Source of the DNA: Candidatus Binatia bacterium
GTDB taxonomy: Bacteria; Desulfobacterota; Binatia; Bin18
NCBI GenBank assembly: GCA_963666315.2
Contig: CAXXHG010000043.1
Location: forward strand, 64,001 to 128,000
Reading direction: 5' to 3'
DNA: 64,000 nucleotides
Of this stretch, positions 481-64,000 are shown piece by piece. The notes below the pieces were generated by a model, which was given only the letters and a program-made list of their open reading frames with translations, did not search any database and was not told the DNA's origin. The translations under genes were made by a program, and so were the position numbers. Position 1 is the stretch's first letter. Every line of letters starts with the position of its first letter.

Positions 481-2664
481 TCAAAACCGGTACGTATAAC
501 GCACCTTGAACTGCGCTTCGCGAGCAATGGAGCGAAAGCCGCCTTCCTCTTCGTCCAGCCAGCGCTGGTTAAAGACCAAAAAGAGATCATTGCCCGGCTC
601 GATGATCCAGCGTATGCGCGTATTCAGACCGAGCACGTCAGACACGGTGTCGTATTGGACCAGGGTAAACCATGACAGATTGGGATTCAGCGCTAAATCC
701 AGGCGGACCCGGAAGAGGCGAACGATAAAATTCCCCTCAGGCAGCCGGACATCGTTCTGCCGGTATTCCGTACTCAAAAAGAATCGTGGCCCAGGTTGAA
801 AATTCAGCTGGGCATCCCAGCTATCGCGCTTGCCGCTATAAAAATCGCCCCAGACATAGGTCAGACGTGCAGACACCTTACGTTTATCCGCAGTTTCCGC
901 TTGGATAAGATAACGTCGAAAGGTGTAGCGATCAGACCCAAGCGTTACGCCGTCGCTGATCTCAAAATCGTCGGTTAAGCGCTCAAACTGCTCCCAGGTC
1001 CGAAACGCCAGTACGTCGCCGCTATCAAAGCGCCACTCGCAGGGAAAAACGATATTGCGCGTAAGGAGCTGATTCGTATCTTGGTCGGTAATATAATTAC
1101 CGTCAAAGGCACACGAGACTTGACGCGTTTTCCAGCGTTTCGGCCGCGGCGCCGCTCTTAAAAACCAGCCGAAACGCCGTATCCCTTTGCGCGGCACAAA
1201 ACCCATAGTGGCGTCAAAATCCCTTTGCACCTCACGATAGGTCCCGAATAGTGACCAGGTGTCATTGGGCAGACTAATTTGACTGCCCCAGGCCCAGTTC
1301 TTGTTCGTGCCGGGGATAAAGCTTTTTTCGAAAAACGAAGAAAAGGTCAAATTTTTATCGCCCAAAAGCTTTGTCGTCTTATACAGAAAGTCATTGCCGT
1401 ACAGGCCGGTCGCAGCTCCATTCTCCGGCGACCGCCGGGTGGCGATCATGCCGATGGACGCGCGCTCCCCAAGGTCACGCTTGACGCGAATGACACTAAA
1501 GTTCTCGCCAGGAATGGGATCGCGCTCTTGCACCTGGACACTGAGTATACCCAGGCGATACTTGCCTATGCGCCCGCTGAGTTTGCCACCGCCGATCAGA
1601 TCGACCGTTTTGCCGTCATCAGAAATGCCTATGCGCCGACTAAAAAAAGGAACGATCACTAACGGACCAGACGTTGGGGTGAGTCCATCAACAGAAAAAT
1701 TGGGCGCGTCCTCTAGAAAGAATTGCCGCTTCTCAGGAAAGAAGAGAGAAAACCGCGTCAAGTTGACCTGCGCATCGTCAATTTCCGTTTCAGAAAAGTC
1801 GGTATTCATGGTCAGACTCAGCGTGAGACCCGGCGTGAGCTTGTAGAACAAATCAAAGCCGGGCTTAAAAGACGCGGCATCACGTCGCACCTCGGTTGTT
1901 AAGAAAGGCGAAAAATCGAAGCCCAAGCCTTGGGAGATATCCTGTAGGCCGGTGAGTCGTCCGGCTACCGATACGCGATTAAAGTCGAGATTCTGGCGAT
2001 GGCCGGTCCACACTGTTTCTTCAGTATTGCGCTTAATAATACGCTGTATATTGAAACCCCAGGTTGATTGTCCAGGGGCAAAGCTCAACGTCTGAAATGG
2101 AATCTCGAATTCCGCCGTCCAGCCAGTTGGCATTAAGTTCGTCTTCACATTCCAGATGCCATTCCAGTCTCGGTTCCTACTTTCACCCTCGTCACCAATC
2201 AGCTCATCCACCCGCGTGCCGACCGAGTTGGTCTGAAATTTAAATGCGTTCCGATGGTCGAGGAAGGTGTCAAACAAGAGAGTCACCCGATCATCGGCAT
2301 CCAGATTGGAATCCCGGTTAAACCGGGTGACGACGATCGCACTCGGATCAGAGTCGTGGCAGGTGACGCCGATATAGAGCTGAAAGCGAGTATAGAGAAC
2401 GCGCACCTCGGTTGATTGAGAGGCGCGTTCACCTTCGTCCGGTTCGCGTTGACGGAAATCGCTGGCGACCTGTGCGGTCTGCCAGGCAGGTTCGTCCAAC
2501 CTGCCGTCAAGAATAATCGGTTCACTGGTAGAGACAGCCCGCAACTCTGGGGTCGCGGAGAAAACAGCCGGCACCACAGCAGGCAGGAAAAGGCATAGGG
2601 CAGTATTGAGGAGAAAGAAACATCCCACAGCAGCCGCGTTCATGACCCTCCACCAACCAAACAA
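481..2664 (-). CDS. Exported CBM9-like/DUF5916 domain protein (probable outer-membrane beta-barrel hydrolase-like)
   Basis: Signal peptide; I.LDGRLDEPAW..A CBM9-like start; NTDFSETEIDDAQVNLTRFSLFFPEKRQFFLE DUF5916 motif; C-terminal Y.Y.F. Confidence 0.8.
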   Translation of the reverse strand: MFGWWRVMNAAAVGCFFLLNTALCLFLPAVVPAVFSATPELRAVSTSEPIILDGRLDEPAWQTAQVASDFRQREPDEGERASQSTEVRVLYTRFQLYIGVTCHDSDPSAIVVTRFNRDSNLDADDRVTLLFDTFLDHRNAFKFQTNSVGTRVDELIGDEGESRNRDWNGIWNVKTNLMPTGWTAEFEIPFQTLSFAPGQSTWGFNIQRIIKRNTEETVWTGHRQNLDFNRVSVAGRLTGLQDISQGLGFDFSPFLTTEVRRDAASFKPGFDLFYKLTPGLTLSLTMNTDFSETEIDDAQVNLTRFSLFFPEKRQFFLEDAPNFSVDGLTPTSGPLVIVPFFSRRIGISDDGKTVDLIGGGKLSGRIGKYRLGILSVQVQERDPIPGENFSVIRVKRDLGERASIGMIATRRSPENGAATGLYGNDFLYKTTKLLGDKNLTFSSFFEKSFIPGTNKNWAWGSQISLPNDTWSLFGTYREVQRDFDATMGFVPRKGIRRFGWFLRAAPRPKRWKTRQVSCAFDGNYITDQDTNQLLTRNIVFPCEWRFDSGDVLAFRTWEQFERLTDDFEISDGVTLGSDRYTFRRYLIQAETADKRKVSARLTYVWGDFYSGKRDSWDAQLNFQPGPRFFLSTEYRQNDVRLPEGNFIVRLFRVRLDLALNPNLSWFTLVQYDTVSDVLGLNTRIRWIIEPGNDLFLVFNQRWLDEEEGGFRSIAREAQFKVRYTYRF

Positions 2665-2671
2665 TTATTCC

Positions 2672-2698
2672 TAAAGTATTCGAATAAGATGACGATAC
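2672..2698 (+). promoter_or_regulatory. Putative sigma28 (FliA-type) promoter
   Basis: TAAA-N15-GACGATAC versus consensus TAAA-N15-GCCGATAA, upstream of a flagellar rod-like gene. Confidence 0.5.
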
Positions 2699-2750
2699 TG
2701 TTACATGTACCATATACTCAACTGAGTTTCCGCCACAAAAGCAGGGTACG

Positions 2751-3149
2751 ATGCATATGCCACTTGGAGCTCGCCCCGCCACGTACTCGGATCTTTCCGT
2801 CTCTCAACGCAAAATCAAGATTACGGCCAACAACAGCGCGCGCGTCAATACTAACGGGTTCAAAAAAAGCCGGACTCTTTTCTCCACTGCTCAGCCCCAT
2901 GGTGTCAATGCCGAAGTCGAACAGGGCGAGAGAGCCGGGCCAAACGCGCTGGAGCAAACCACGCCAAGTGAGCAGTCTGTCGGACAATCGGACGTCGACG
3001 CACGCGTCGAAGCCGACGTTGACCTCGGTCAAGAAATGGTCAATCTTCTGTCTGGTCAGCGTGGGTATGAGGCAAGTTTACGCACGCTGAAGACCGCGGC
3101 TAAAATGGTCGGCAGCATGATTGATGTTGTCGCTGATGAGGAACAATAA
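2751..3149 (+). CDS. Short flagellar basal-body rod/hook family protein (FlgC-like N- and C-terminal motifs)
   Basis: ANNSARVNTNGFKKSR (variant of ANNxANxxTxGFK) and VDLGQEMVNL...YEASLRTLKT. Confidence 0.75.
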   Translation: MHMPLGARPATYSDLSVSQRKIKITANNSARVNTNGFKKSRTLFSTAQPHGVNAEVEQGERAGPNALEQTTPSEQSVGQSDVDARVEADVDLGQEMVNLLSGQRGYEASLRTLKTAAKMVGSMIDVVADEEQ

Positions 3150-5491: not shown

Positions 5492-5561
5492 TTGACAAGA
5501 ATAATACGACTCATAAAATGAATCATAACAACTCATTATTGAGTCACTATCGAGTTACTCG
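5492..5561 (+). promoter_or_regulatory. sigma70 promoter of the TA operon overlapped by inverted-repeat operators
   Basis: TTGACA(5492)-N16-TAAAAT(5514); IRs GACTCAT-aaa-ATGAATC (5508-5524), ACTCA-ttat-TGAGT (5531-5544), CGAGT-t-ACTCG (5551-5561). Confidence 0.65.
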
Positions 5562-5572
5562 GAAGTGTTTAT

Positions 5573-5836
5573 ATGCGACAACTCACTATTCGCGGATTTG
5601 ATGAGCCTCTCCTCCAGCGCTTACAACAACTCGCCCGACAGGAAGGAATTTCCTTAAATAAAGCTGCTCTGCTGTTGCTCAAACGAGGAGCGGGGCTGGA
5701 CCCCTCTCCTCAGCAGGCTGAAGAGGTCGGCCATTCGTTAGATCACCTCATTGGCGCATGGTCGCCTGAGGAAGAGCAAGCTTTTCTAAAAGCAACACAG
5801 CGCTTCGATCAGATCGATGATGCTTTTTGGTCATGA
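5573..5836 (+). CDS. vapB: Antitoxin, FitA/VapB-like ribbon-helix-helix
   Basis: MRQLTIRGFD...ARQEGISLNKA RHH pattern; ATGA overlap with the downstream PIN toxin. Confidence 0.75.
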   Translation: MRQLTIRGFDEPLLQRLQQLARQEGISLNKAALLLLKRGAGLDPSPQQAEEVGHSLDHLIGAWSPEEEQAFLKATQRFDQIDDAFWS

Positions 5837-6231
5837 GGATCTTGCTTGATACAAATGCGTGTGCTGCCCTCTTACGGGGCAAGCCTCAAGTGACCAGTCT
5901 AGTCCATCATGCACGGCAGGTTCTCTTGTCCACAGTCGTGCTTGGCGAGCTGCTGTTTGGCTTTCGCAACGGTTCCCAGCATGAAAAGAATCGCCAAGAG
6001 TTAGATGAGTTTCTCGCTAACCTGTACGTGGATGTTATTCCGGTGACATTCACAACAGCGGACCGTTTCGGGCGGATCGCCACGGCTCTACGTCAGGCTG
6101 GTACACCAATCCCGACAAATGATATCTGGATTGCTGCTCACGCAATCGAGACTGGGGCGGATTTGTTGTCCTATGATAGACACTTTGAGACTGTAGCGGG
6201 CTTGGTCTGGATTCAACTCTTCGACTCGTGA
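5833..6231 (+). CDS. vapC: VapC family PIN-domain toxin
   Basis: ILLDTN, LGELLFG, IPTNDIWIAAHA, SYDRHF. Confidence 0.9.
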   Translation: MRILLDTNACAALLRGKPQVTSLVHHARQVLLSTVVLGELLFGFRNGSQHEKNRQELDEFLANLYVDVIPVTFTTADRFGRIATALRQAGTPIPTNDIWIAAHAIETGADLLSYDRHFETVAGLVWIQLFDS

Positions 6232-6477
6232 AGCTGTGTCAAAGTCCGCTGAGGCAGCGCCACGTCATGTGAAGGGTCTACGGCTGGACGCCCCTTCTCT
6301 CAGGCCCACGCCCGTTTGCAGAAAAACATAATCTTGAGTGGAAGAGGTACTGCCGAATTATCGAGACCCGCTCTCCGATAAGACGGCCCCCTCCAAACCA
6401 CGACTCTCGGGAGCGGGCCGTGTTTCACAGGGCTGAGACGCACGAATCCTTAGAACGGTTCAAAAGGAGGACACGGA

Positions 6478-6866
6478 ATGTCTACCCAACGCTATACACT
6501 CTCTGTCTTTGCGGCGCTGATCGCGGGCCTAGTGGGCGGGGGCACCGCCGGCCTACTCGTGTCCGGCTCGTTCCTGTATGCGTCCCCGCTACAGGAACGA
6601 GCCGGACACAGCGGATAGTCATCGTGGATGCGACCGGCCAGGAGCGCATGGGACTCGGGATAGTGGATGGAGTTCCTCGCCTGATGATGCTCGACCACGA
6701 TGGGCGAACACGGCTGGCGTTGGGACTGCTTGGCGATGGCGCGCCCCGCTTAAGTTTCCTCGACCCCCACGAGAAGATGCGACTGGAGGTAGGAGCCCCC
6801 GCCGATGGTTCGCCAGCCTTGGTGGTGTTAGATGCCCGGGAGCAAACGGTGTGGCAGGCGCCCTAG
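6478..6866 (+). pseudogene. Exported/membrane-anchored hypothetical protein with a frameshift near 6600
   Basis: AGGAGG RBS and ATG 6478 give hydrophobic MSTQRYTLSVFAALIAGLVGGG..., which stops at ~6618; the beta-repeat part (IVIVDATGQERMGL...VWQAP) is in another frame. Confidence 0.55.
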
Positions 6867-6956
6867 TCGCGAGTGGCAACGCTGCGTCGATCCGTCTCGG
6901 CCCCCGATCAACTCCTCCGGCCTTGTCAAGTTGATCGGTGATACTCCAGATGCGGC

Positions 6957-8216
6957 CTACAGCTTCCCCGCCTCGCGCAGCTCCTTCACCCGCTCTTCTT
7001 GGATAAGCACCCCCTCCGCATACAGCGTAGCGATCTGCTCGTCGGTATAGGATAGGTCTTCTTGAAGAACCTCTTCATTATGCTCACCAAGAAATGGAGC
7101 GCGGAACGGGATCTCGACGTCCGCATTCGAAAAATGAAACGGCGATTTGGCGACCGGTGTTGAGCCGAGCAGCGGATGCGGCAGGTCTTGGAACAACCCG
7201 CGCGCTTTCAGCTGGGGATGCGCCGCTGCTGCGGGGATATCCAGAATAGGCGCGGAGGGCACCCGTGCTTCAAGCAAAATTTTCAGCGGCGTTTCGTCAT
7301 CTTCAAATCTTTGCAGCCAGTCTTCGATATATTCGCGGACTTCAGCCCGGCGCTGTAAACGGTCGGCCATAGTGGCGTAGCGTTCGTCAGTCTCTAATTC
7401 GGGCTTGCCCATGGCCTTGGTTAAGGCCGGCCACTGGTGTTCGACGACGGCAAGAACGACATAACCCTTTTTGGCCTTGTACACACCGTACGGGCAGACG
7501 TTAAAAAAGTCTCCGCCAAAACGCTGCGGGACGATCTCGCCTTGGCTCATCATATACAGCGGGAAGTTAATATAATCCAAATAGACCAGGGATTCGAGCT
7601 GCGATATGTCGATAAATTGCCCCTCGCCAGTCATGGCACGACTAAACAACGCCGCGCAAATCGCCAGCGCGCCATGAATGCCGGCATTCGGGTCACCGAA
7701 ATAGTTGCCGACATAGGTTGGTGGGCCGTCCGGCTGACCGGTCATGGCCATCACCCCGCTCTGCGCCTGGGCGATAATGTCAAAGCTGGTATGCTTGGCG
7801 TACGGGCCATCCTGCCCGTAGCCCGACACCGAGCACATGATTAGTTTGGAGTTGAGTTCTTTGAGGGTGTCATAATCCAACCCATTCCGTGCCATGACCC
7901 CAGGACTATAATTCTCAACCACCACATCGGCCTGACGCACCAGCGCGTATACGATTTCTTTTCCCTTGGGATGTTTGATCTCAACACACACACTTTTCTT
8001 GCCCGCGCAGGCAGCGATAAAGAACGCGCTTTGGCCATGATCGACAAGATGGATTTTCCGACCCAGGTCACCGCTGGGTGTGCGTTCAATCTTGATGACA
8101 TCCGCACCCAGGTCGGCCAGAATCCGGGTGGCAGATGGACCGGCCAGATATTGGGTGAAGTCGAGCACTTTTATACCGGCGAGTAATTTCTTCGAGCCCT
8201 TTGTGTTCTGAGCCAT
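6957..8216 (-). CDS. CoA-transferase family III (CaiB/BaiF)
   Basis: L.GIKVLDFTQYLAGP, LADLGADVIKIE, ADVVVENYSPG, APFLGEHNEEVL. Confidence 0.93.
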   Translation of the reverse strand: MAQNTKGSKKLLAGIKVLDFTQYLAGPSATRILADLGADVIKIERTPSGDLGRKIHLVDHGQSAFFIAACAGKKSVCVEIKHPKGKEIVYALVRQADVVVENYSPGVMARNGLDYDTLKELNSKLIMCSVSGYGQDGPYAKHTSFDIIAQAQSGVMAMTGQPDGPPTYVGNYFGDPNAGIHGALAICAALFSRAMTGEGQFIDISQLESLVYLDYINFPLYMMSQGEIVPQRFGGDFFNVCPYGVYKAKKGYVVLAVVEHQWPALTKAMGKPELETDERYATMADRLQRRAEVREYIEDWLQRFEDDETPLKILLEARVPSAPILDIPAAAAHPQLKARGLFQDLPHPLLGSTPVAKSPFHFSNADVEIPFRAPFLGEHNEEVLQEDLSYTDEQIATLYAEGVLIQEERVKELREAGKL

Positions 8217-8396
8217 ATCCCCTCCTGTACGTATCTGCGTGAGGCGCGTGCATGAGAGATTGTGGCTGATTGGTGAATACTTGACAATGCTCTACGTAAC
8301 AGCGTGCAGGAAACTCTCTGCTCGCTTGACTCTATACGCCTGTGGCCTACGATGAGGCCCAGCACGCGCGAATGAGATATGTGAGTGTGTTCAAGT

Positions 8397-9068
8397 ATGC
8401 GTCTAACACTTCTGAGACCTGTGACATTCGGCTGCTTCGGCCTCGTGCTGATACTCTCCGCCTCTTTCTCTTCCGGCGTTTCGGCGACCGTCTACGAGTG
8501 GCGGAGTCCAAACGGCAGCCGTCATTTTAGTAATGATGTCGCGACTGTGCCAGAGGATAAACGAGATGCCGCACGGACGTTTATCTCAAGGTTCGCAGGT
8601 AAACAAACTGAAGCGTCTCCCTCGCCGCTGCCTGCCAATCGCGCCCAAGATTCAGCCGCTCTGCAAGCAGATATTGCGCGTATTGCCGCATACGAGCGCG
8701 GCCTTGAACGCGGTTTACAGACCGCAGAACGCCAGGTGCGGATGGCCGCAGAGCTAGCCCGGACGATATTAGCAGCCGTCCCGCGCCGTCCGCCTATCCA
8801 GATCATTATTCGCCAGTCCGCGCCACAGGTCCGCCATGTTTATTCTCATGACCCTGCCCCCTTCTACTGTTTTATCAGCCCGTATGGTCCCTACCACTCC
8901 AGTCACTTTCCGTACCGGAGCTATTCGTACGGCTTTCGGCAGGGACGTTTTATCTCGTATTCGCATCTGTCACCGTCTCGCCGCCGTAGACATCGTGGCA
9001 TCTTCTTTCCGCGCGGACATCAGTCAAGAGACGGCTTCCTGTTTGGACATGGCTTTGTTGTGCGTTAA
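8397..9068 (+). CDS. DUF4124-domain exported protein with a low-complexity Arg/His/aromatic tail
   Basis: Signal peptide, then VYEWRSPNGSRHFSND..TVP. Confidence 0.65.
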   Translation: MRLTLLRPVTFGCFGLVLILSASFSSGVSATVYEWRSPNGSRHFSNDVATVPEDKRDAARTFISRFAGKQTEASPSPLPANRAQDSAALQADIARIAAYERGLERGLQTAERQVRMAAELARTILAAVPRRPPIQIIIRQSAPQVRHVYSHDPAPFYCFISPYGPYHSSHFPYRSYSYGFRQGRFISYSHLSPSRRRRHRGIFFPRGHQSRDGFLFGHGFVVR

Positions 9069-9140
9069 AAGAACAGCCCACCGAAACGAACCTTTAGAAG
9101 CAAGCATCCAAGAGGGAAAAGAAAGCAGAAAGGATACGTC

Positions 9141-10115
9141 ATGTTGATTCGCACCCGGCACGGTTGGGAAATCCCTGAGCGCACGGCAACCCCGGAGGAC
9201 GTCTACCTCAACCGGCGTAAATTTCTACAGGCGCTGGGCATTGCCGGCATCAGTACGCTCGGCAGCCTCTCCGGCTGCGAAAGCTCAGGCGCGGACGAGC
9301 AAACCGCGATTCCAGGCATGCCTGAACCAAGCCCGACCGCCGACCTGTATCCGGCCAAGCGCAACGAGCGGTTTACCCTGGACCATCCCCTCACGACCGA
9401 AATAGACGCTGCGAATTACAATAACTTCTACGAATTCAGCTCGCGTAAAGAACTCGTCGCCCGTTTGGTTGAGCGGTTTCAGACCCGCCCGTGGCAGATC
9501 GAAGTGACCGGTCTCGTGCAGAAGCCCCAGACCTTTGATATCGACGACTTGGTTCGCAAAATGCCGCTCGAAGAGCGCCTCTACCGCCACCGTTGTGTCG
9601 AAGCGTGGTCAATGGCCGTGCCCTGGACGGGCTTTCCCATGAAAGCGCTTGTTGACCTCGTCCAACCCCTCTCGTCAGCCAAGCATCTGCGCATCCTCAC
9701 CTTCAACAACCCGGAACAGGCACCCGGCTTGCGCAATGACACCTACCCCTGGCCGTATTTTGAAGGTTTGACCATGGCCGAAGCCACAAACGATCTAGCA
9801 CTCTTTGTGACCGGCATCTACGGCCATGAGCTGACCAAACAGCATGGTGCCCCGATTCGGATCGTGCTGCCGTGGAAGTATGGTTATAAGAGCATCAAGT
9901 CGATCGTGCGTGTGGAGTTTGTCGAGCAACAACCCAAGACCTTCTGGAATACGCTGATTCCTTGGGAGTACAACTACGTTGCGAATGTGAATCCTGCTAT
10001 TCCGCATCCACGTTGGTCGCAGGCTAGTGAGCGCATCTTGGGGACGAGAGAAGTCCGAGCGACCCTGCCCTACAACGGCTATGGGGAGTTTGTCGCCCAA
10101 CTGTATAAGACGTAA
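9141..10115 (+). CDS. msrP: Protein-methionine-sulfoxide reductase catalytic subunit MsrP (YedY), Tat-exported molybdoenzyme
   Basis: TPE.VYLNRRKFL Tat signal, YNNFYEF, YRHRCVEAWSM, PWKYGYKSIKSIV, HPRWSQASE. Confidence 0.95.
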   Translation: MLIRTRHGWEIPERTATPEDVYLNRRKFLQALGIAGISTLGSLSGCESSGADEQTAIPGMPEPSPTADLYPAKRNERFTLDHPLTTEIDAANYNNFYEFSSRKELVARLVERFQTRPWQIEVTGLVQKPQTFDIDDLVRKMPLEERLYRHRCVEAWSMAVPWTGFPMKALVDLVQPLSSAKHLRILTFNNPEQAPGLRNDTYPWPYFEGLTMAEATNDLALFVTGIYGHELTKQHGAPIRIVLPWKYGYKSIKSIVRVEFVEQQPKTFWNTLIPWEYNYVANVNPAIPHPRWSQASERILGTREVRATLPYNGYGEFVAQLYKT

Positions 10116-10116
10116 G

Positions 10117-11184
10117 ATGGGGACGAGGCGGAAGGGACTAGGGATTGGTTTTTACTTCTGCCTGATCGCTTTTTCAGCGCTTGCCTCGTGTTCGGTTCCG
10201 GCTGATCGTACGCCGGAGATGAATCCCGACCCATCGCTGTTATACGCCGCCCACGGCCAACCCGGTGCGTGGTTTAATCCGTGGCGCGCGTGGAATAAGA
10301 GCTATACCGACCTGTTCCGCTGGACCGTGTCGCGCAGCGCCTATACCGGCCAGCGGCGTGATCCGCCCGAAGTGCCTCGGGTAGAAAATGACGGCAGCTC
10401 GTTTGCCACACAAGAAAACTCGGCTGCCGTCACCTGGGTGGGCCATTCGACCTTTGCCGTTCATGACGGACCAGACGTATTTCTGACGGATCCGCACTTT
10501 GGCAAACGCGCCCTCCTGCCCGCACGCCACCATCCGCCCGGGGTCCCTATCTCAGCAATTCCGGACAACGCCTTCGCCGTGGTGTCCCACAACCACTACG
10601 ACCATCTGGATGCGTATACAGTCGAGAACCTGCCCCAGTCGGTCACTTGGTTTGTACCTCTGGGATTAGATAAATGGATCGAAAAAAAAGGGCGGAAAGC
10701 CGTCGAATTGGACTGGTGGCAAACGGCGCAGCACGGCCGCTGGAAAGTGACCTGTGTGCCCGTTCAGCACTGGTCACAGCGTATCGACCAGTGGCAGAAT
10801 TCAACCCTGTGGTGCGGCTGGGTCATTGCTAATGACGAACGGACCTATTTCTTCGCCGGCGATACCGGCTATTTTCACGGCTTTACCGAGATCGCCAAAA
10901 AGTTCGGCCCGATCGACGTGGCCATGCTGCCCATCGGGGCGTATGAACCGCGCTGGATCATGCATTACTCTCATTTGAACCCGACGGAGGCGTATCAGGC
11001 CTTTCACGACCTCAAGGCGCGTTGGATGCTGCCCGGTCACTGGGGTACCTTCCCACTCACGGATGAACCGATAGACGAACCACCACGCGAACTCCGGCGG
11101 GTTATTGAGCAAGCCGGCGGGACACTCGAGCCGATTAAGATTTTCGCGATCGGCGAGCGGTGGAAGATTCCGGAAGGGCGGTAG
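10117..11184 (+). CDS. MBL-fold metallo-hydrolase (NAPE-PLD/RomA-like), probable lipoprotein
   Basis: LAS-C lipobox; TWVGHST, SHNHYDHLD, FAGDTGY, LPIGAYEP, HWGTF. Confidence 0.9.
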   Translation: MGTRRKGLGIGFYFCLIAFSALASCSVPADRTPEMNPDPSLLYAAHGQPGAWFNPWRAWNKSYTDLFRWTVSRSAYTGQRRDPPEVPRVENDGSSFATQENSAAVTWVGHSTFAVHDGPDVFLTDPHFGKRALLPARHHPPGVPISAIPDNAFAVVSHNHYDHLDAYTVENLPQSVTWFVPLGLDKWIEKKGRKAVELDWWQTAQHGRWKVTCVPVQHWSQRIDQWQNSTLWCGWVIANDERTYFFAGDTGYFHGFTEIAKKFGPIDVAMLPIGAYEPRWIMHYSHLNPTEAYQAFHDLKARWMLPGHWGTFPLTDEPIDEPPRELRRVIEQAGGTLEPIKIFAIGERWKIPEGR

Positions 11185-11348
11185 GGGCGCAGCAGGCTGC
11201 ATCAGTCACAACTTAAGCCTTAGTCGGGTTGCTCGGCGTTCTACCCCCTCCTTGGAGGGGAGAAGCTCGCTGACGCTGCCACTCCGTTCCTTCGCTGACA
11301 GCTCATTCTACTTAAATTGGGACAAGTGAGCATGCTACGCCGGTCCAA

Positions 11349-12293
11349 TTACTGGGCAAACGTCTCAATCGCCTTTTGCACCGCTTGGGCGTAGGTCTGG
11401 TCTGCCACCGGCACAGGGTTGAGAATCGGCATCTGGATGCCGGCTTCGCGAAGGGCAGCTAGTTGTTCCCGGCAGCGGACAGGCGGACCGATCACTGACA
11501 GTTCATCCGCCATTTTATTCGTAGCCCCCTGCCTTCCACCGCCTACGAGTTTCGCCGCTTCGGCCTCAAATCCACTATCGTGAAAAAGCTTATTATAAAA
11601 CGGCAGGCCGCCATAAAAGCCCAGATTGGCTTTTGCCGTTTCCATGGCGGCATCCATATCGTCGTGTATGCAGGACGGAATGCCGGTGGTGATATCGATG
11701 TCTGAAACCGGGCGGCCGGCTTTGGCAGCCCCTTTCTCGACCGCGGCCAAGGCGGTGGGAATGCGACTCTTGGGACACAGATACAGCATGACGCCATCGG
11801 CAAGCTCACCACTCAAGGCAACCGTGCCCAAAGCCAGCGCCCCAATATAGATCGGAATGTGATTCACCGCCGCACGCGGTTGCATGGCCATGCCGGGCAG
11901 CTCTTTGCCCGCCGCCATATCACGGATCGCGCCGATATACTGGCGCATAAAGTTGCGCGGCTTTTCCATTTTTTCTTGGTACAGCCCTTCAACAATGGGT
12001 CGGTGACTCACCCCAAGGCCCAAAATCAGCCGGCCGTGCGAGGTGTCATCAATGGCGATGGCCGTTTGCGCACACAACGCCGCGTGACGCAGATAGATGT
12101 TCGCAATCCAGGTGCCGACCTTAATCCGCGAGGTGGCCTGGGCCATAATCTGGCAGTTGATCAAAGAATCGTTCATAAATTCCGGCGAAAAAATAGCCTC
12201 AAATCCGGCCGACTCAGCACTCTTGGCCAAGTCTTGTAACTCCGGAAACGTGAGTCCGGACATATTGGCGGCAACCACTCCGATACGGGCCAT
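11349..12293 (-). CDS. LLM class flavin/F420-dependent oxidoreductase
   Basis: ATSRIKVGT.I, GRLILGLG, PIYIGA.G...GELADG. Confidence 0.88.
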   Translation of the reverse strand: MARIGVVAANMSGLTFPELQDLAKSAESAGFEAIFSPEFMNDSLINCQIMAQATSRIKVGTWIANIYLRHAALCAQTAIAIDDTSHGRLILGLGVSHRPIVEGLYQEKMEKPRNFMRQYIGAIRDMAAGKELPGMAMQPRAAVNHIPIYIGALALGTVALSGELADGVMLYLCPKSRIPTALAAVEKGAAKAGRPVSDIDITTGIPSCIHDDMDAAMETAKANLGFYGGLPFYNKLFHDSGFEAEAAKLVGGGRQGATNKMADELSVIGPPVRCREQLAALREAGIQMPILNPVPVADQTYAQAVQKAIETFAQ

Positions 12294-55878: not shown

Positions 55879-57813
55879 ATGCAAACACGCCGAAAAAGAT
55901 CAAAATCGGTGAGATCCTCGTCCAAGAGGGCTTGCTCACCCAAGAGCAGGTCGCCTTTGTTCTTGACCAACAAAAATATACCAAGAAAAAGCTCGGCGCG
56001 CTCTTAGTCGAACAGGAGGTTTTGACTGAAACCTCGCTCGTCAAAGCCCTCTACCAACAGGCCCAATCAACGAAACGAACAGCCAGTCGCTTGGACGAAC
56101 TCGTTACTACACAGCGCGTCAATCAAGAGGATCTCGATGCCGCCACCCTGGAGGCCAGAAAAACGCACCGGTCTGTCGAGTCTGTGCTTATTGAACACTA
56201 CGACGTCAGCAAGAAGGATATTGGAAAAGTGCTGAGCACCTTCCACAAGCTGCCTTTTTCTGGATTATAACGAACAAACGAAAATCGACCCCGCCCTTGT
56301 CGGTAAAGTCAACCTGAGTTACCTCATGGCGAATCATTGGATTCCCCTCACCGCCACCGCAGAGAGCGTCGATGTGTTAATCGACGATCCGCACTACTTC
56401 CAAAAATTGCAGGACATTCGGCACCTTTTCCCAGGCAAAGAGGTCCACTGCTTCGTTGGACTCCAGGAGGACATTCTCCGTTACATCAACGATTCCAAAC
56501 CCGGTGGCAACTCAGGTGACGCAGCAGCATCTCTTTCAAATATTCTGGGACAGTTAGAAGAAGAGGAAGGGCATCCTGTCGAAGAAGCGCTGGGGACCGT
56601 TGTCGATGAGAATGACAGCGCTATCGTGCGTCTCGTCAACCAGATCATCGCGGATGCATACGAAAAGGGCGCCTCGGACATTCATATCGAGCCCTACGGC
56701 GAGCAAAGAGACACGGTTGTCCGCTTCCGTATTGATGGCATCTGTCACCAATATCTCAAGGTCCCAGCCATCTACCGCCGTGCCCTGGTCTCTCGTATCA
56801 AGATTATGGCCCAGTTGGACATTGCCGAACGCCGTAAACCCCGAGACGGCAAAATGCGCTTTCGGGTGCGAAATCAGGATATTGAGCTGCGGGTTGTCAC
56901 TATGCCGACCGCAGGGACGGCCAATGAAGACATCGTCATGCGTATCCTGTCGGCCAGTAAACCCATGCCGCTCGAACAGCTCAAAATGTCGAAACGCAAT
57001 CTGCGCGAGTTTCAAAACGTACTGATAAAACCGTATCGGATGATTCTGTGTGTCGGCCCCACAGGCTCGGGCAAAACCACGACTCTGCACTCTGCTTTGG
57101 GACAGATTAATACGCCGGAGCGCAAGATCTGGACGGCAGAAGATCCGGTTGAAATTACTCAGTATGGCCTGCGCCAGGTCCAAGTCCGGCCTAAAATCGG
57201 CTTCGATTTCTCTGCCGCCATGCGGTCGTTCTTACGGGCGGACCCGGATGTCATCATGGTGGGTGAAATCCGCGATCAGGAAACAGCCGAGATTGCTATT
57301 GAGGCTTCACTCACCGGCCATTTAGTCTTGAGCACGCTACATACAAACAGCGCGGTTGAAACGGTCGTGCGCTTACTGGATATGGGCATGAATCCGTTCA
57401 ATTTTGCTGATGCGCTGCTCGGTATTCTGGCCCAACGCTTGGCACGCACGCTGTGCCAACAGTGTAAAGAATCATACCAGCCGACTCGGGAACAATTTGA
57501 GGCGTTAGCGCATGGCTACGGCGAAGCAGCCTTTGCCCAGCTCGGCATCTAGTATGACGAAAATTTCCGGCTGCAGCGCGGCACAGGCTGTGAACAGTGT
57601 TCCAACACCGGCTATCGTGGCCGTCTTGCTCTACATGAGTTCCTGGTTGCAACAGACACCATAAAATCCCTTATCCATGCCCAGGCCACCGTCAGGGAGA
57701 TGTTCCAGGCCGCCATCGAACAAGGGATGACAACGCTACTCCAGGACGGCATACACAAAATCCTGGAGGGTTGGACCGATTTCAAGCAAGTCCGCGCCGT
57801 CGCACTGAAATAA
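55879..57813 (+). pseudogene. GspE/PilB family ATPase with MshEN-like N-terminal repeats; frameshifts at ~55881 and ~56257, in-frame TAG at 57550
   Basis: KIGEILVQEGLLT...; ASDIHIEP, LDIAERR, GPTGSGKTTT, EDPVE, DPDVIMVGEIRD, GHLVLSTLHTN, CQQC...CEQC, GY.GR. Confidence 0.85.
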
Positions 57814-57835
57814 CACCGGCAAAATACGATCAATA

Positions 57836-57861
57836 CAAGATTTTTCTCCTGGGCCCGATAA
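57836..57861 (+). promoter_or_regulatory. Putative sigma28-type promoter of the HDOD gene
   Basis: CAAG-N14-CCCGATAA. Confidence 0.45.
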
Positions 57862-57898
57862 TAGCGGGTAGGACACATTGTTTGGGTGAGGATGCATT

Positions 57899-58732
57899 AT
57901 GCTGTCAGCAAATCTGGTCACGATCAGTGTGCTAACCCTGACTGGAGTCGGCGTCATATTCTTGGCTCGCCTGGCCATCCAATCGCGCTCCCAAACCGCT
58001 CAGCGCCGCCCACGTTCACACTCGGCGGCAAGCCGTTCAGCAGCTTCGCGGCCGTCTCAACGCCGAGCAACATCCTCGCCCGATACTGATACGACCGTCC
58101 TGCGCCGCACTGTTCAAGAAGACGAGCGGCGGGCGCAGACAACGGAGGAGCAATCAGCCCAAGCCGACGCACGGAAAAACGCGTCGCAAGAGCAAATTGC
58201 CCGCTACTTCCGGGAAGTTTCCGAACAATACAAGCTGCCGCCTCTCCCCAGCGTTGTCACCCAGGCGCTGGGAATGCTGCGTGACCTCAATGTCGATATC
58301 GTCAAGCTGTGCCGCGTCTTAGCAAACGACGCCGCCATGGTAGGACGGGTTCTCAGCCTCTCACACTCCGCCATCTATGGCTTACGGAATACTCCCAAGA
58401 CCATCAAAGAAGCCGTCCCCATCCTTGGTCAGAAGGCACTCCAACGCATCCTGTTGACTGCGGGCACCCAAACGTTATGCATCGGCCATACGGGCGCCTC
58501 GGCTGCATTATGGGATCATGCCATGGCCACCTCTCTGGCCGCTGAAGGGTTCGCGCGCAAGGTTCGCTTTCCTGACCCGGATCTCGCTTTTCTGGCGGGT
58601 CTCATGCACGACATCGGGCAAATGGTACTCCTCCTGAGTGACGCTGAGCGGTTTGGACGACTCCGAGACCAAGCCCGGCTTTATCCTCACGAAGGCATGG
58701 TCACAAGCTGGGATTTTATTGATTTTCTTTAA
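57899..58732 (+). CDS. HDOD domain protein with N-terminal TM helix, apparently C-terminally truncated
   Basis: LPPLP, D......VL....S..YG, LW.H, AFLAGLMHDIG; ends before the usual H..VG..L...W.LP segment. Confidence 0.75.
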   Translation: MLSANLVTISVLTLTGVGVIFLARLAIQSRSQTAQRRPRSHSAASRSAASRPSQRRATSSPDTDTTVLRRTVQEDERRAQTTEEQSAQADARKNASQEQIARYFREVSEQYKLPPLPSVVTQALGMLRDLNVDIVKLCRVLANDAAMVGRVLSLSHSAIYGLRNTPKTIKEAVPILGQKALQRILLTAGTQTLCIGHTGASAALWDHAMATSLAAEGFARKVRFPDPDLAFLAGLMHDIGQMVLLLSDAERFGRLRDQARLYPHEGMVTSWDFIDFL

Positions 58733-59742: not shown

Positions 59743-60138
59743 TTACGCGTCTTGCTCGTTGGGAGACGGTTCCTTTGGATAGACACGCAGACTTTTCCAG
59801 TGGCGCAATAAGACTTTGCCCGGAGGGAAACCACGCGGTTTTGTCACATCTGAGACGCGACAGATATGGACTTCAGCCTTGCCCCGGCTACCGCGGGCCT
59901 TGGAGTACGAGGCAGCCAGCTGGGCAGCATGGCCCCGAACAATAGGCGGCAGGTCAGCGAGCTGATCGGGATTACGCACGACAACATGGCTGCCGGCAAA
60001 ATTGACAACGTGCAGCCAGAAATCTTGAGGGTCAGCAATAGAAAAAGTAAGCGTGTCATTTTCCGCGTCCCCCTTGCCAACCAAGATTTCAAACCCTTCA
60101 AAAGAGAGGATGCGGAATGCCAGGCCTTTGCTTGCCAT
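59743..60138 (-). CDS. Stand-alone NFACT RNA-binding (DUF814) domain protein
   Basis: ILVGK...END.LT....P.DFWLHV....GSHVVV, AA.LAA.YSKA, K......PG.V. Confidence 0.85.
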   Translation of the reverse strand: MASKGLAFRILSFEGFEILVGKGDAENDTLTFSIADPQDFWLHVVNFAGSHVVVRNPDQLADLPPIVRGHAAQLAASYSKARGSRGKAEVHICRVSDVTKPRGFPPGKVLLRHWKSLRVYPKEPSPNEQDA

Positions 60139-60282
60139 GTTTTAGGATTGCGTCTTTTGCATAGTGATATGGTACACAACTTAGACAACGTATGACTGAT
60201 TTACAGTAGTACTGGTTTGGGGCTGACCCGAACAGGGCCATGATGAATAATTGCGGACACACAAAAGAAGGAGGGGCCTTCT

Positions 60283-61125
60283 ATGGCAGCAACACAGACG
60301 TCGGCCGCGGTTGAAATTCAGGTAAAAGAAACCAAGCAAGAGCAAACGGGGTATGGCGAAATGCCGTTCATGCGCTTCATGGTTATAGGCTCAAGCCTTG
60401 GACTGCTTTCTTTACTTCTCATTAGACTGTGGCAAGGCGAGTGGTGGTTCCCGGTTGGCCTTGACGCCACAACACCCGAATTTGCCACCTATTGGCTAGG
60501 CCTGCTGTATATTGAGTGGGTCGTCCTTATCGCTGTCGGCGTGATGGGCTACCTGGCATACCGTAAACCATGCGCGATCTGCGCAGCCCATAAAATAGAG
60601 CTGGGCCGGATTGACCCCGAGCACGAACTCAACCACATTGGCAAGCTGTGGGCCACTGTTGCGGTGGCAGCCATCTTCGGCTTTGGCGTCAGCTATTTTG
60701 CTGAGCAGGACGCCTCCTGGCATCAAATCGTGGTACGAGACACAGCCTTTACCCCCAGCCATATTCCGCTCTTCTTTTATGCCTTTCCGATGTTGCTTGT
60801 CATGACCGCGATCAGCTCCTGGTACGCCTATAACCGCCTGCACCACCTGTATGTGGGTGAGGATGGTAAGGGCATCCCGCTCTCCTACCTGCTGTTTCCA
60901 GCTGGTGGCTGGCTCTTGTTCGCCAATGTTGCTTTTAATGAACTCGGACATTCGAGCTGGATCACTGAGGAACTCTTCGTCCAGCCCTTCCACTTCCCGT
61001 TTGCTTGGGCGACCTATTTCTTTTTCGCCGGATTTGCCCTGCTCTTTAAGACCGTCCCGCATATCTTTGAAAACCTGAAAGCGATGACACAGCAAGAGAC
61101 TCCAACTTCTGTGCATGCCTCGTAA
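60283..61125 (+). CDS. xmoC: Copper membrane monooxygenase subunit C (PmoC/AmoC family)
   Basis: GLD...PEF..YW; EQDASWHQ..VRDT.FTPSH (D143/H147/H160); NELGH..W..EELF..P.H (N219/H223/H237). Confidence 0.93.
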   Translation: MAATQTSAAVEIQVKETKQEQTGYGEMPFMRFMVIGSSLGLLSLLLIRLWQGEWWFPVGLDATTPEFATYWLGLLYIEWVVLIAVGVMGYLAYRKPCAICAAHKIELGRIDPEHELNHIGKLWATVAVAAIFGFGVSYFAEQDASWHQIVVRDTAFTPSHIPLFFYAFPMLLVMTAISSWYAYNRLHHLYVGEDGKGIPLSYLLFPAGGWLLFANVAFNELGHSSWITEELFVQPFHFPFAWATYFFFAGFALLFKTVPHIFENLKAMTQQETPTSVHAS

Positions 61126-61196
61126 AAAGCCTCGCAGCAAGTCTCAATTCGTGTTACCCGCGTTGTCGAAACTCGTCATATAAAGACAGTAGCAGT

Positions 61197-61940
61197 ATGA
61201 AGGCCGAGGAACTCACCGCACTCGGACAGCATCGCTTGGCTAAGGCTTTTGACGTGATACTGCTCCTCGCCCTTATTGGCTTTTTCACCGTCATCCCACA
61301 TGTCAGTCGGATGCTGTATATGGGCGACTGGGATTTTTGGGTCGACTGGAAAGACAAACTGTGGTGGCCGATCGTCGGACCTGCTTCTGCGCTTTTAGTC
61401 ACTACCGTAGGCCATTATCTGGCTTGGTATTATCTGCGTCTCCCTCTTGGCGCGACCTTTGCCGCGGTCTGTGTTTTGATCGGGGCATGGATCAGTCGGA
61501 TCTTCAGCTTCTATGGGCTGGAGTATTATCCGCTGAATTTTGTCTGGCCTGCGACGACTATCCCTATGGCGCTGGCGCTTGATCTTATCCTTTTTTGGTC
61601 ACGCAGTTATTTGGTCACGAGCTTCGTCGGCGGATTTTTGTGGGGCTTCATCTTTTATCCCATCAACTGGCTCATGCTCATGCCTTTTCTCCAGCCCATT
61701 ACACTCTTTGGTAAGACGTTTACGATTGCCGATTTAATGGGCTATTACTTCGTACGCCCGCAAACGCCGGAGTATTTACGGCGGATTGATGAAGGCACCT
61801 TGCAAGCCTTCCTTGGCCAGCGGATATGGATCAGCGTCTTAACGGCTGGTGTGGCTTGCACCATTGTGTACTGGGTCGGTATCGGGATAGGCAAAGCGCT
61901 CGGGGTCATGCCCCTGAATAAAGTGATCCGGCAAACGTAA
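61197..61940 (+). CDS. xmoA: Copper membrane monooxygenase subunit A (PmoA/AmoA family)
   Basis: GDWDFWVDWKD..WW, RLPLGAT, YP.NFV.PA, FYP.NW, R..TPEY.R.I..GTL. Confidence 0.95.
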   Translation: MKAEELTALGQHRLAKAFDVILLLALIGFFTVIPHVSRMLYMGDWDFWVDWKDKLWWPIVGPASALLVTTVGHYLAWYYLRLPLGATFAAVCVLIGAWISRIFSFYGLEYYPLNFVWPATTIPMALALDLILFWSRSYLVTSFVGGFLWGFIFYPINWLMLMPFLQPITLFGKTFTIADLMGYYFVRPQTPEYLRRIDEGTLQAFLGQRIWISVLTAGVACTIVYWVGIGIGKALGVMPLNKVIRQT

Positions 61941-61979
61941 CCTCCTCGCGTCAGACGAATAGCCTTACAGGGAATTTTC

Positions 61980-63324
61980 ATGTCTCGTTGCGGAAAACTG
62001 TGCGCCACGCTCACCCTTGCTCTCTGCCTGTGCACGACGGGGGTTTCACCCCCTGGGGTTTCACGCGTCCAAGCCCATGGCGAGCACAACTTGGAGCCTT
62101 TTATTCGTATGCGTGGGGTGACGTTTTTCAACGTGCAGTTCACCCACGACCAGCTCAAAGTCAATGAGACCATGACCGTGACTGGTAAGTTCCGGCTAAT
62201 GCACGCCTGGCCACGTATGCTCACAACGCCCGAGCTGTCTTGGATCGGTATTCTGGTACCCGGCCCGAAGCTTGCCGTGCGGGAACGCTGGATCAATGGC
62301 CGCTTTATCCAAAACTCATTTCATACCGAGCTGGGAGAAATATACGATTTCAAAATGGTTCTCCAGGCTCGGCAGCCCGGCCGCTATCACATCCATCCGC
62401 TCGTCAACCTGTCTGGTACCGGAGGACTGGTGGGCCCTGCCAAATGGATCACCGTTGTCCCTGGAGACGCCCCACCTTCCTATACCGTAGAGGTTGCGGC
62501 AACGGGCGAGATCATAGACCTAGAACACTTCGGATTCGCTCGACATAGACCTAGAACACTTCGGATTCGCTCGAATAGTTAGCTGGCATCTTGTTTTTGG
62601 TATTCTTGGAATTGCCTGGCTCGGGTATTGGGCGAGAAGACCCATAATCGTACGCTACGCTCTCTTATTAGAAGGCGTTGACGAAGAACAGATCACAGAC
62701 AAGGACCGTCGGGTTTCTTACATTTTCGGCGTAGTCTTGGTCGCTGTGGTTGTTGGCGGGTTGTGGGTAACAAATTCTGGCAGTCCGCCAACCATTCCGC
62801 ACCAAACGGGCGGTATATGGGATCTGTCCGGTCTGCCGCATCCCAATGCTGTGCAGACCAAGGTCAAGGAGTTCCGTTACAGCCCGACTCAGCGCGCCCT
62901 GAGCATACAAGTTGAAGTGACAAACAATTCAGACCAATCCGTATTATTACGAAAATTCAGTACGAGCTATCTGACTTTCATCAACCAGGACAGCCAAGCG
63001 CTGTACCCTGACGCCCAGAATGAGGTTCCTGTTATGAAAGTGGAACCTGAGGGACTCATCCAGCCTGGCGAAACCAAAGCCTTGACGCTGACTATGCAGG
63101 ATGCGGTGTGGGAAACGGATCGGTTCATCGAGTTCGATCAGCCCCAGATCAGCGCCGCCGGCGTACTTGTTTTTACCGACGCCCAGCCTCTTCCAGCAGA
63201 AGAACTTGAGCCCATGATGATGGGCAACAGCCGAGAAGGCTTAGGTGTTCCGTGGGAACATATCTCGAGCGTGAATGAGGTCTATTCCAATCTTCTGGTC
63301 GATTTTGGGCAAGTAGGGCAGTAG
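61980..63324 (+). CDS. xmoB: Copper membrane monooxygenase subunit B (PmoB/AmoB family), frameshifted by a 31-bp tandem duplication; 437 aa when restored
   Basis: Signal peptide, AHGE, EPF.RMR, PGP, GRYHIHP (H33/H137/H139), GP.KWIT, DLE...WH...AW.GYW..RP, second cupredoxin domain VTN..D..V.L.KF.T, I.PGETK. Confidence 0.9.
62513..62574. repeat. Exact 31-bp tandem duplication inside xmoB
   Basis: CATAGACCTAGAACACTTCGGATTCGCTCGA x2 (62513-62543, 62544-62574). Confidence 0.95.
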
Positions 63325-63500
63325 CGACTTTTGCCATCGAGCGCGACCAAAAGAGCACGAGCCGTTTGCTCCTGCGTGCGTGCTCTTGATCTTGAAGCGA
63401 GACCGCTGCCCGGGCAATTCATAATTGCCCCTACACACTGCTCTCACAGCTCCATGGCAACCCTGCCAAAGAATTGGCGATCTTCGAGCGAGCGGTATGC

Positions 63501-64000
63501 TTACACGGGCTCAGCGTCGATGAGGATGCCGGCCAAAAGTGCCGGCTCATCGCTTCGGTTGACCCACGCGTGATTTGTGCCACGCTGCACAACCACGTCA
63601 AAGGGTTCCAGGTCGACCTAACCCTCGTCAAGTAGGAGGGTCACCTTGCCCGACAGCAGAATGATGTAACCAACCGTGTGGGTAGTATGCATGCCTGGAT
63701 GACGGGTCATACCGACGAGCGCGCTCTCAGCGCCAATACTAGCAAACATTTCTCGCGTCCGAGTGGCAAGCGTCTGCGCATCCAGGTCAGCGGTTGCAGA
63801 ATCAGGTGCAAGTTCAAAATACCGAAACAACGATCCGAGCGGCGGGGGTTGGAGCTACACCGGCCGGTCGGCGGCATCGGCATTGCCTTGATTACTCGCC
63901 GGGATCTCTTCCGTGGCCCAAATCTCGGTCACCGGATCGAAAGCCTGGGGTGCATCATCGAACAACACAACCGATTTGCCCTGGGCGTTATGTCCCGTCA
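63501..64000 (-). pseudogene. Cupin domain protein with two in-frame TAG stops (63855, 63618); 5' end outside window
   Basis: VTGHNAQGKSVV, MHTTHTV.Y...LSG...L.LD, DVVVQRGTNHAW.N in one frame. Confidence 0.8.

Follow-up and report, generated by a model that had tools for sequence, protein, structure and literature searches.

The closest described relatives of the locus examined here are the copper membrane monooxygenases (CuMMOs) of the Binatota. In the portions of text available from Murphy et al. (2021, mBio; PMC8262859), CuMMOs are recorded for Bin18 (2/2 genomes) and the Binatales (9/48), with the gene orders CAB and CAxB/CAxxB, two copies in two genomes and conserved XmoB residues H33/H137/H139. 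The same portions describe two Binatota pmoA clusters (TUSC and Actinobacteria/SAR324) and a XoxF-type dehydrogenase in Bin18, associate Bin18 with sponges, and leave methane versus short alkanes open as the substrate. According to excerpts of Ramirez et al. (2023, Microbiome; PMC9999580), a Bin18 symbiont of A. aerophoba transcribes pmoA, and the same is cited for P. ficiformis. In the excerpts at hand, a 2025 Nature Communications paper counts Binatota among the phyla bearing hydrocarbon monooxygenase (HMO), and a 2026 deep-sea sponge paper names the phylum only in its list of metagenome-assembled genomes (MAGs). Here we describe a CuMMO operon, xmoC-xmoA-xmoB, at 60283-63324 of the window, which is the whole 64,000-nt stretch analysed from a Candidatus Binatia genome (GCA_963666315.2, contig CAXXHG010000043.1, positions 64,001 to 128,000); coordinates without a contig or locus name refer to this window.

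The locus shares with the described Binatota CuMMOs, as far as the excerpts of both papers allow the comparison (PMC8262859; PMC9999580), its phylum and class, the CAB order of this operon (copy 1) next to a CAxB order in a second operon of the same genome (copy 2), the presence of two copies, the XmoB histidines H33/H137/H139, and marine and host-associated occurrence. It differs from them in that xmoB is frameshifted by a 31-bp tandem duplication. Thus a Binatota/Binatia genome, a CAB or CAxB order and the XmoB histidine ligands were all found, and the novelty implied by the first-pass annotation of this DNA did not survive: a scan with one genome per species returned 24 loci at 79–94 % XmoA identity (next matches ≤43 %), and the kind is already in print. 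The interpretation as a divergent CuMMO is right, but not new. We consider it quite probable that the window carries copy 1 of two CuMMO operons in a marine host-associated Binatia, that its xmoB is a recent pseudogene, and that the substrate in the intact relatives is likely a C1–C4 hydrocarbon.

Subunits, copper ligands and phylogenetic placement

The operon begins with intact xmoC (60283-61125, + strand, 280 aa; PF04896, AmoC, E 7.5e-44, 150 bits) and intact xmoA (61197-61940, + strand, 247 aa; PF02461, AMO, E 5.8e-62, 210 bits), and xmoB-homologous sequence extends to 63324 (open reading frame (ORF) list and Pfam scans). The CuMMO subunit families AmoC, AMO and Monooxygenase_B are therefore encoded together in the order C-A-B, with all Pfam scores above the cut-offs. 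Relative to locus L004, xmoC is 92 % and xmoA 94 % identical. The best NCBIfam model for the window XmoA, NF041557 ("bacterial AmoA"), gave 227 bits against a cut-off of 290, and TIGR03080 gave 209 bits against 318; both XmoA copies of the genome fall below the NCBIfam equivalog cut-offs. The motifs by which the sequences depart from the canonical ones (SHIPLFF, NELGHSSW, HGEHNLEPF) are seen in the alignments to solved particulate methane monooxygenase (pMMO) chains. The description of a divergent, non-canonical CuMMO was thus upheld, with XmoA below the equivalog cut-offs for pMMO and ammonia monooxygenase (AMO) and outside every characterised clade in two trees (see below). The claim of a complete C-A-B operon stood in part; the order and coordinates are real, but xmoB is frameshifted.

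Alignment to solved pMMO chains bore out every one of the nine copper ligands claimed. XmoB H33/H137/H139 align with H33/H137/H139 of 3rgb_A (6cxh_A was also aligned), and XmoC D143/H147/H160, within 'eqDaswHq...tpsH', and N219/H223/H237, within 'NelgHs...pfH', align to the matching motifs of 7s4l_C and 6cxh_C. We take the XmoB residues to form the CuB site and the two XmoC sets to form CuC and CuD, respectively; the M. capsulatus residue numbering used for the PmoC comparison is, we assume, that of the pMMO structural literature. Judged by profiles and alignments, all three proteins are genuine CuMMO subunits in which no canonical copper ligand is missing. The ligands and the three-subunit composition are shared with pMMO of Methylococcus capsulatus/Methylotuvimicrobium (3rgb, 7s4l, 6cxh).

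Two trees were built. The XmoA tree (IQ-TREE in quick mode, LG+G4) holds 116 rows, reduced from 186 by dropping fragments and rows >82 % identical to a kept row outside the focal set. The concatenated C+A+B tree (quick mode, PMSF mixture model) holds 38 rows from 74 three-gene loci, omits 24 redundant methanotroph loci as well as 13 of the 24 from Binatia, and includes the window xmoB read through with X at the break. Both trees are unrooted, carry long-branch warnings, and lack by name the AMO of ammonia-oxidising bacteria (AOB) and of archaea, Methylococcus-type PmoA, Thermoplasmata CuMMO, Verrucomicrobia, NC10, Nocardioides CF8 and SAR324. In the XmoA tree the window falls in a clade of 28 of the 116 rows (SH-aLRT 100, stem 0.56) that contains only Binatia loci and unnamed metagenome proteins. 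Across the main split of this tree (99), the window clade shares its side with the HMO of Mycolicibacterium chubuense NBB4 and the copy-2 clade; the opposite side holds pXMO-order loci, USC-alpha-type pMMO, the Haliea ETY-M protein and betaproteobacterial types. The concatenated tree resolves three deep groups, namely NBB4 with the copy-2 clade (98), the window clade (100, stem 1.24, 12/38 rows) and a proteobacterial group (99). Copy 1 is 37/43/31 % identical (C/A/B) to NBB4 HMO, 35/38/36 % to an ABC-order locus and 33/37/31 % to copy 2.

In both trees the window clade thus lies outside the USC-alpha and other proteobacterial pMMO clades, and rather than nesting tightly in a characterised clade it has no characterised member. 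HmoCAB of NBB4 (plasmid pMYCCH.01, locus L085) has the same C-A-B order, the same three Pfam families and the same side of the main XmoA split as copy 1; it differs in its C/A/B identity (see above), in pairing with copy 2 in the concatenated tree, and in having a gene for an N,N-dimethyl-4-nitrosoaniline (NDMA)-dependent methanol dehydrogenase close by, which the window operon does not have. From pMMO and the methanotroph pXMO-order (ABC) loci, copy 1 is set apart by the 35–38 % identity to the ABC-order locus, the separate deep clade and the scores below the NCBIfam cut-offs. The trees point to a separate deep lineage, not to a resolved sister relation. They separate copy 1 (Binatia only) from copy 2, in contrast to the single Actinobacteria/SAR324 cluster of Murphy et al. 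(2021); the placement of the paralogs is not visible in the text available from the papers. The literature text on Binatota CuMMOs that was available gave no phylogenetic separation of the two Bin18 paralogs; figures and supplements lay outside this search, and such a separation may be in print.

The 24 close loci are nearly all labelled Candidatus Binatia or Binatota, and the C-A-B order was found in 24/24. Evident mislabels occur among the records of CuMMO-bearing MAGs (L004, L005, L023, L027, L010, L078), which read 'uncultured Enterobacteriaceae', 'Thermodesulfobacteriota' or 'Klebsiella pneumoniae'. Protein-database clusters around the two best XmoA matches have 211 and 51 members. Of the sister-group protein clusters looked up, one (P0016) showed organism names, those of Chloroflexota fragments. 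When 200 other genomes were sampled from the class, copy-1-type XmoA (at least 79 % identity) was present in 17, all within the window's own family (17/24: 14/15 in its genus and 3/5 in a second genus; 0/176 outside the family). Pairwise Nei-Gojobori omega was 0.04–0.25 for all genes and pairs (xmoC 0.08–0.13, xmoA 0.04–0.09). We conclude that the copy-1 lineage forms a deep clade, restricted to a single Binatia family and kept under strong purifying selection.

A second CuMMO cluster and the substrate

The first-pass annotation placed the operon in a heterotroph context. This reading missed that the genome also encodes another CuMMO cluster, which is intact and linked to a pyrroloquinoline quinone (PQQ) alcohol dehydrogenase. 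The cluster lies on contig C24 (L003, which is C24:30000-44000, at 5515-12156; L087 at 1393-3105) in the order xmoC2-xmoA2-x-xmoB2, with xmoC2 of 282 aa, xmoA2 of 267 aa, a 111-aa ORF without a Pfam match and xmoB2 of 415 aa (full-length profile match). On the 3' side of xmoB2 follow a 193-aa ORF without a Pfam or NCBIfam match and two multicopper-oxidase genes, and a full-length PQQ methanol/ethanol-family dehydrogenase is encoded at C24:42399-43928 (609 bits, cut-off 480). XmoA1 and XmoA2 are 37 % identical to each other. Copy 2 is 60–89 % identical to sequences labelled Acidobacteria, Dormibacterota, Caldinitratiruptor, Carbonactinospora and others in a large clade, and groups with Actinomycetota, Chloroflexota and Dormibacterota sequences. 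Two AMO-family loci were found in 5/5 complete relative chromosomes checked; the two-paralog state is the rule in these relatives. A phage-type integrase gene lies upstream of copy 2 (L003 630-1868), so that the cluster may sit on an island.

The genome (92 % complete) encodes two full-length PQQ methanol/ethanol-family dehydrogenases, and several others are split or contain stops (four loci, on contigs C3, C40 and C46). Many genes of the assembly, these among them, are split or truncated (window 55932-58732; L084 2933-4278; contigs C3, C40, C46), which points either to widespread gene decay in a host-restricted population or to an assembly of low coverage. No NDMA-dependent methanol dehydrogenase (TIGR04266) scored above the cut-off in the genome, where weak matches lay far below it. 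A multihaem cytochrome of the hydroxylamine oxidoreductase (HAO) type (PF13447) likewise gave no match in the genome; none was obtained in any control genome either, so this result is uninformative.

Could the enzyme, where intact, be a genuine pMMO, which would make these Binatia methanotrophs? Bin18 pmoA has been read in this way, to judge from the parts of both papers at hand (Ramirez et al., 2023, PMC9999580; Murphy et al., 2021, PMC8262859), and both the two full-length PQQ dehydrogenases and the finding of the operon in seawater, vent and host-labelled sequencing runs (see below) are consistent with it. However, the available text of Murphy et al. does not decide between methane and short alkanes for the cluster. 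In neither tree does the window sequence fall into a pMMO clade (canonical Methylococcus-type PmoA is not among their rows), and XmoA does not reach the TIGR03080 cut-off. The PQQ dehydrogenase beside copy 2 is nearer to solved quinoprotein ethanol dehydrogenases (427 bits) than to XoxF (350 bits), and Fae (PF08714) was not found in the 92 % complete genome, in which other formaldehyde routes were not searched for. We therefore regard a genuine pMMO as unlikely, with a real but minor chance of being correct. Taken together, two paralogs only 37 % identical in XmoA, an uncharacterised copy-1 clade, an ethanol-type dehydrogenase and the lack of a Fae match suggest that the methane label needs a direct test.

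A bolder reading takes copy 1 as a third deep CuMMO lineage, about equidistant from the pMMO/pXMO and HMO types, found in one marine Binatia family and kept beside an HMO-type paralog for another small substrate (e.g. an alkene, ketone or methylated compound from sponges or seawater, not methane or C2–C4 alkanes). We hold this to be doubtful, at about the level given to a genuine pMMO. If it were true, loss of copy 1 in the host-labelled population, and not in a seawater population of ~99 % identity, would reflect a substrate missing inside the host.

The 31-bp duplication in xmoB

The 5' part of xmoB (61980-62582, + strand, 200 codons) matches PF04744 over profile positions 1-153 of 380 (E 3.8e-50, 172 bits) and encodes a signal peptide and the N-terminal cupredoxin domain with H33/H137/H139. 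Its reading is correct to 62543, after which 12 out-of-frame codons lead to a TAG stop. The cause is a 31-bp unit present as two perfect head-to-tail tandem copies at 62513-62574, seen in the raw sequence, by Tandem Repeats Finder (62513-62578, period 31, 2.2 copies, score 125) and in unitigs of sequencing runs. The added 31 nt shift xmoB by +1 after residue 188, and the peptide IDLEHFGFAR is translated once in each frame. The 3' part (62545-63324, + strand, shifted frame) matches PF04744 over profile positions 211-364 (E 9.3e-24, 85 bits) and codes for two transmembrane helices and the C-terminal domain. Its frame is open from 62524 to 63324, and the first ATG, GTG or TTG codon in it is a TTG at 62737 (listed ORF 62737-63324). 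Because this codon lies inside the second helix, a separate translation start for the 3' part is implausible. As read from the sequence, only the secreted N-terminal cupredoxin domain can be made from the window xmoB, the helices and C-terminal domain being predicted to lack a usable start.

Full-length translatable genes for all three subunits are thus lacking in the window and present in 24/24 relatives, in which xmoB is intact with the unit single-copy and in frame. In these loci the N- and C-terminal XmoB query pieces match one frame and overlap by exactly the 30 nt common to both queries, which indicates one unit copy and an intact xmoB. One relative, L013, has an additional short match at 8834-9010, which is 56 % identical to residues 201-259 in the C-terminal XmoB query (window 62545-63321). 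It follows the intact xmoB at a distance of ~700 nt on the downstream side and may be what is left of a partial duplication.

Public sequencing runs were searched for sampled sequence words. Twenty rows from 14 studies contain some part of the words. Two host-labelled runs, X1 and X2, contain 97–98 % of them and are probably the source runs of the assembly; five more runs contain at least half (seawater, marine, vent and another host label). Contigs were mapped onto the operon for four runs (X1, X2, X3, X17), and the word shares of X4-X16 and X18-X20 were not counted for habitat or expression. In X1 and X2 the contigs end at the repeat, and a 60-nt unitig (62514-62573) joins copy 1 of the unit to copy 2, so that the duplication is read-supported in two sample codes. 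The junction unitig has a depth of 3 (X1) and 2 (X2), the 31-nt unit unitig 6 and 4, and the flanks 2–2.9. With d two-copy and s single-copy molecules, the junction depth should be d and the unit depth 2d+s; the observed depths give s = 0 in both runs, i.e. every sampled molecule carries two copies.

A contig of 1777 nt from X3, a seawater run of another study, aligned at a depth of 14.6 with 19 differences (~99 % identity). It jumps from 62512 to 62544, leaving out exactly 31 nt, and represents an intact single-copy xmoB allele. Six contigs of 151–238 nt from X17, an RNA library of a marine metatranscriptome, lie over xmoC, xmoA and xmoB with 1–11 differences each. An RNA library thus contains a 93–99 % identical operon; this hints that such an operon is expressed and is not proof for the window's own copy. 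Of two circumstances that the first-pass annotation had thought fatal to its reading in combination, a broken xmoB was found in all sampled X1 and X2 molecules; as for a lack of transcription, RNA contigs of a near-identical operon exist in X17. Two further observations concern xmoA. A stretch of 33 nt (61323-61355, in the conserved DWDFWVDW region) also matches another contig in X1, X2 and X3, with 3 mismatches and both ends loose, most likely the paralogous xmoA2. One X17 contig (depth 2.5) has an extra T behind 61590; as a single low-depth contig it may be in error.

Relaxed selection on the broken xmoB was not detected, either by pairwise omega or among the X3 differences listed. Omega was 0.15–0.22 between the window xmoB and its two closest relatives and 0.09–0.25 between intact pairs, and 15/24 coding differences from X3 were synonymous (among 26 differences listed of 47). 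Since xmoB is under purifying selection, the break must be very recent.

We considered whether the duplication is an assembly or sequencing artefact, with xmoB intact in the organism. The low depth (2–3), the several other split genes in the assembly, which could mean a noisy assembly, and the intact xmoB of all relatives are what such an artefact would lead one to expect. In contrast, the copy-to-copy junction is an independent unitig in two runs with two sample codes, the unit k-mer stands at twice the junction depth in both, and a perfect 31-bp duplication is atypical of homopolymer-type errors. An artefact is accordingly improbable. Still more improbable, in our estimate, is that the duplication is a reversible off-switch by which the population could toggle copy 1, perfect tandem copies collapsing readily. 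The two copies are indeed perfect, the rest of the operon is undamaged without relaxed selection, and the single-copy allele circulates in seawater at ~99 % identity. However, the duplication occurs in 0/24 other genomes, a reading of the raw sequence gave no repeat-prone context and no microhomology flanking the unit, and one observation cannot show switching.

Neighbourhood and implications

Upstream of the operon and divergent from it lies a gene for an NFACT-R domain protein (59743-60138, - strand). The first-pass annotation had named this neighbour, and the PF05670 match (E 2.7e-12) agrees; the gene is conserved in 20/24 relatives' loci (tblastn). Further upstream, the genes for TetR, an HDOD protein (profile 1-150 of 196) and a type II secretion system (T2SS) ATPase (profile 3-293 of 370) are not conserved, and the latter two are truncated. 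Pfam scans of the neighbours gave no CuMMO accessory gene adjoining the operon, and the absence of adjacent pmoD, copCD, hao and methanol dehydrogenase genes noted earlier was confirmed by the same scans. Conserved downstream of the operon in the relatives are an MDR/PIG3-like oxidoreductase (22/24), a GltD-like flavoprotein (19/24) and an F420-type LLM oxidoreductase (15/24, a count limited by locus ends); the conserved MDR gene of this genome is located beyond the window end. These three were tried as a downstream pathway and rejected, as they are convergent or distant and fall short of every specific NCBIfam cut-off.

At 63325-64000 begins a strain-specific insert, ~3.96 kb long and made up of gene fragments, that separates xmoB from the MDR gene (L084 1326-5283). 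It contains two "cupin" pieces, a major facilitator superfamily (MFS) transporter in two overlapping ORFs (L084 2933-4278) and a tetratricopeptide repeat (TPR) fragment; its ORFs were found in 0/24 relatives and are not part of the CuMMO system. A cupin neighbour, as first annotated, could not be retained, and the cupin was rejected as part of the system: the gene is in pieces, neither fragment matches a Pfam family, and it is absent from all 24 relatives. The xmoB-MDR gap of the relatives is 61–4347 nt and holds unrelated small ORFs, by eye presumably PIN/VapC-like, AbrB-like and TIR-like; across relatives L004-L027 it appears as a hot spot of variable insertion. Scans for promoters and terminators were uninformative, with 1 promoter-like site (60223-60251) where chance predicts 2.4, and 7 terminator-like sites where it predicts 3.6.

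The reading that we favour, a CuMMO of known kind whose xmoB has recently become a pseudogene in this genome, would work as follows. In the intact relatives, a membrane XmoCAB complex would draw electrons from the quinol pool and activate O2 at the XmoC copper site, the XmoB CuB site being conserved. A small hydrophobic substrate, most likely a C1–C4 alkane or alkene, would be hydroxylated, and the alcohol product would be handed to periplasmic PQQ alcohol dehydrogenases encoded elsewhere. The window operon itself would be a very recent pseudogene, with the remaining CuMMO activity carried by the intact copy-2 cluster.

Several points weigh against this reading. The depth at the lesion is 2–3 per run, so that "fixed" rests on about five molecules, and X1 and X2 are not independent of the assembly. 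The single-copy allele has no 31-mers of its own, and contigs could miss a minority of intact alleles. The position relative to HMO comes from an unrooted tree and amounts to a three-way split, which makes "HMO-like" a label of convenience. The operon has no alcohol or aldehyde dehydrogenase, its conserved neighbours are convergent or distant, and nothing here shows the substrate. The sponge literature, in the text available, calls the lineage methanotrophic (PMC9999580). That the enzyme is an ammonia monooxygenase is highly improbable: its best NCBIfam model is the 'bacterial AmoA' NF041557, but the score of 227 bits is below the cut-off of 290, there is no PF13447 HAO-type match (a weak argument, since no control genome matched either), and the trees hold no AOB sequences.

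What is new here is a natural copy-1 knockout, the recognition of copy 1 as a deep family-restricted lineage distinct from the HMO-type copy 2, and hints (an ethanol-type PQQ dehydrogenase, no Fae match) that the methanotroph label deserves testing. Claims of a marine methane sink for sponge-associated Binatota rest on 'pmoA' of this lineage, and transcript and amplicon studies should distinguish the two copies. The 31-bp duplication amounts to a clean natural knockout of one paralog, and, if it is confirmed, a comparison with the intact seawater population could reveal the role of copy 1.

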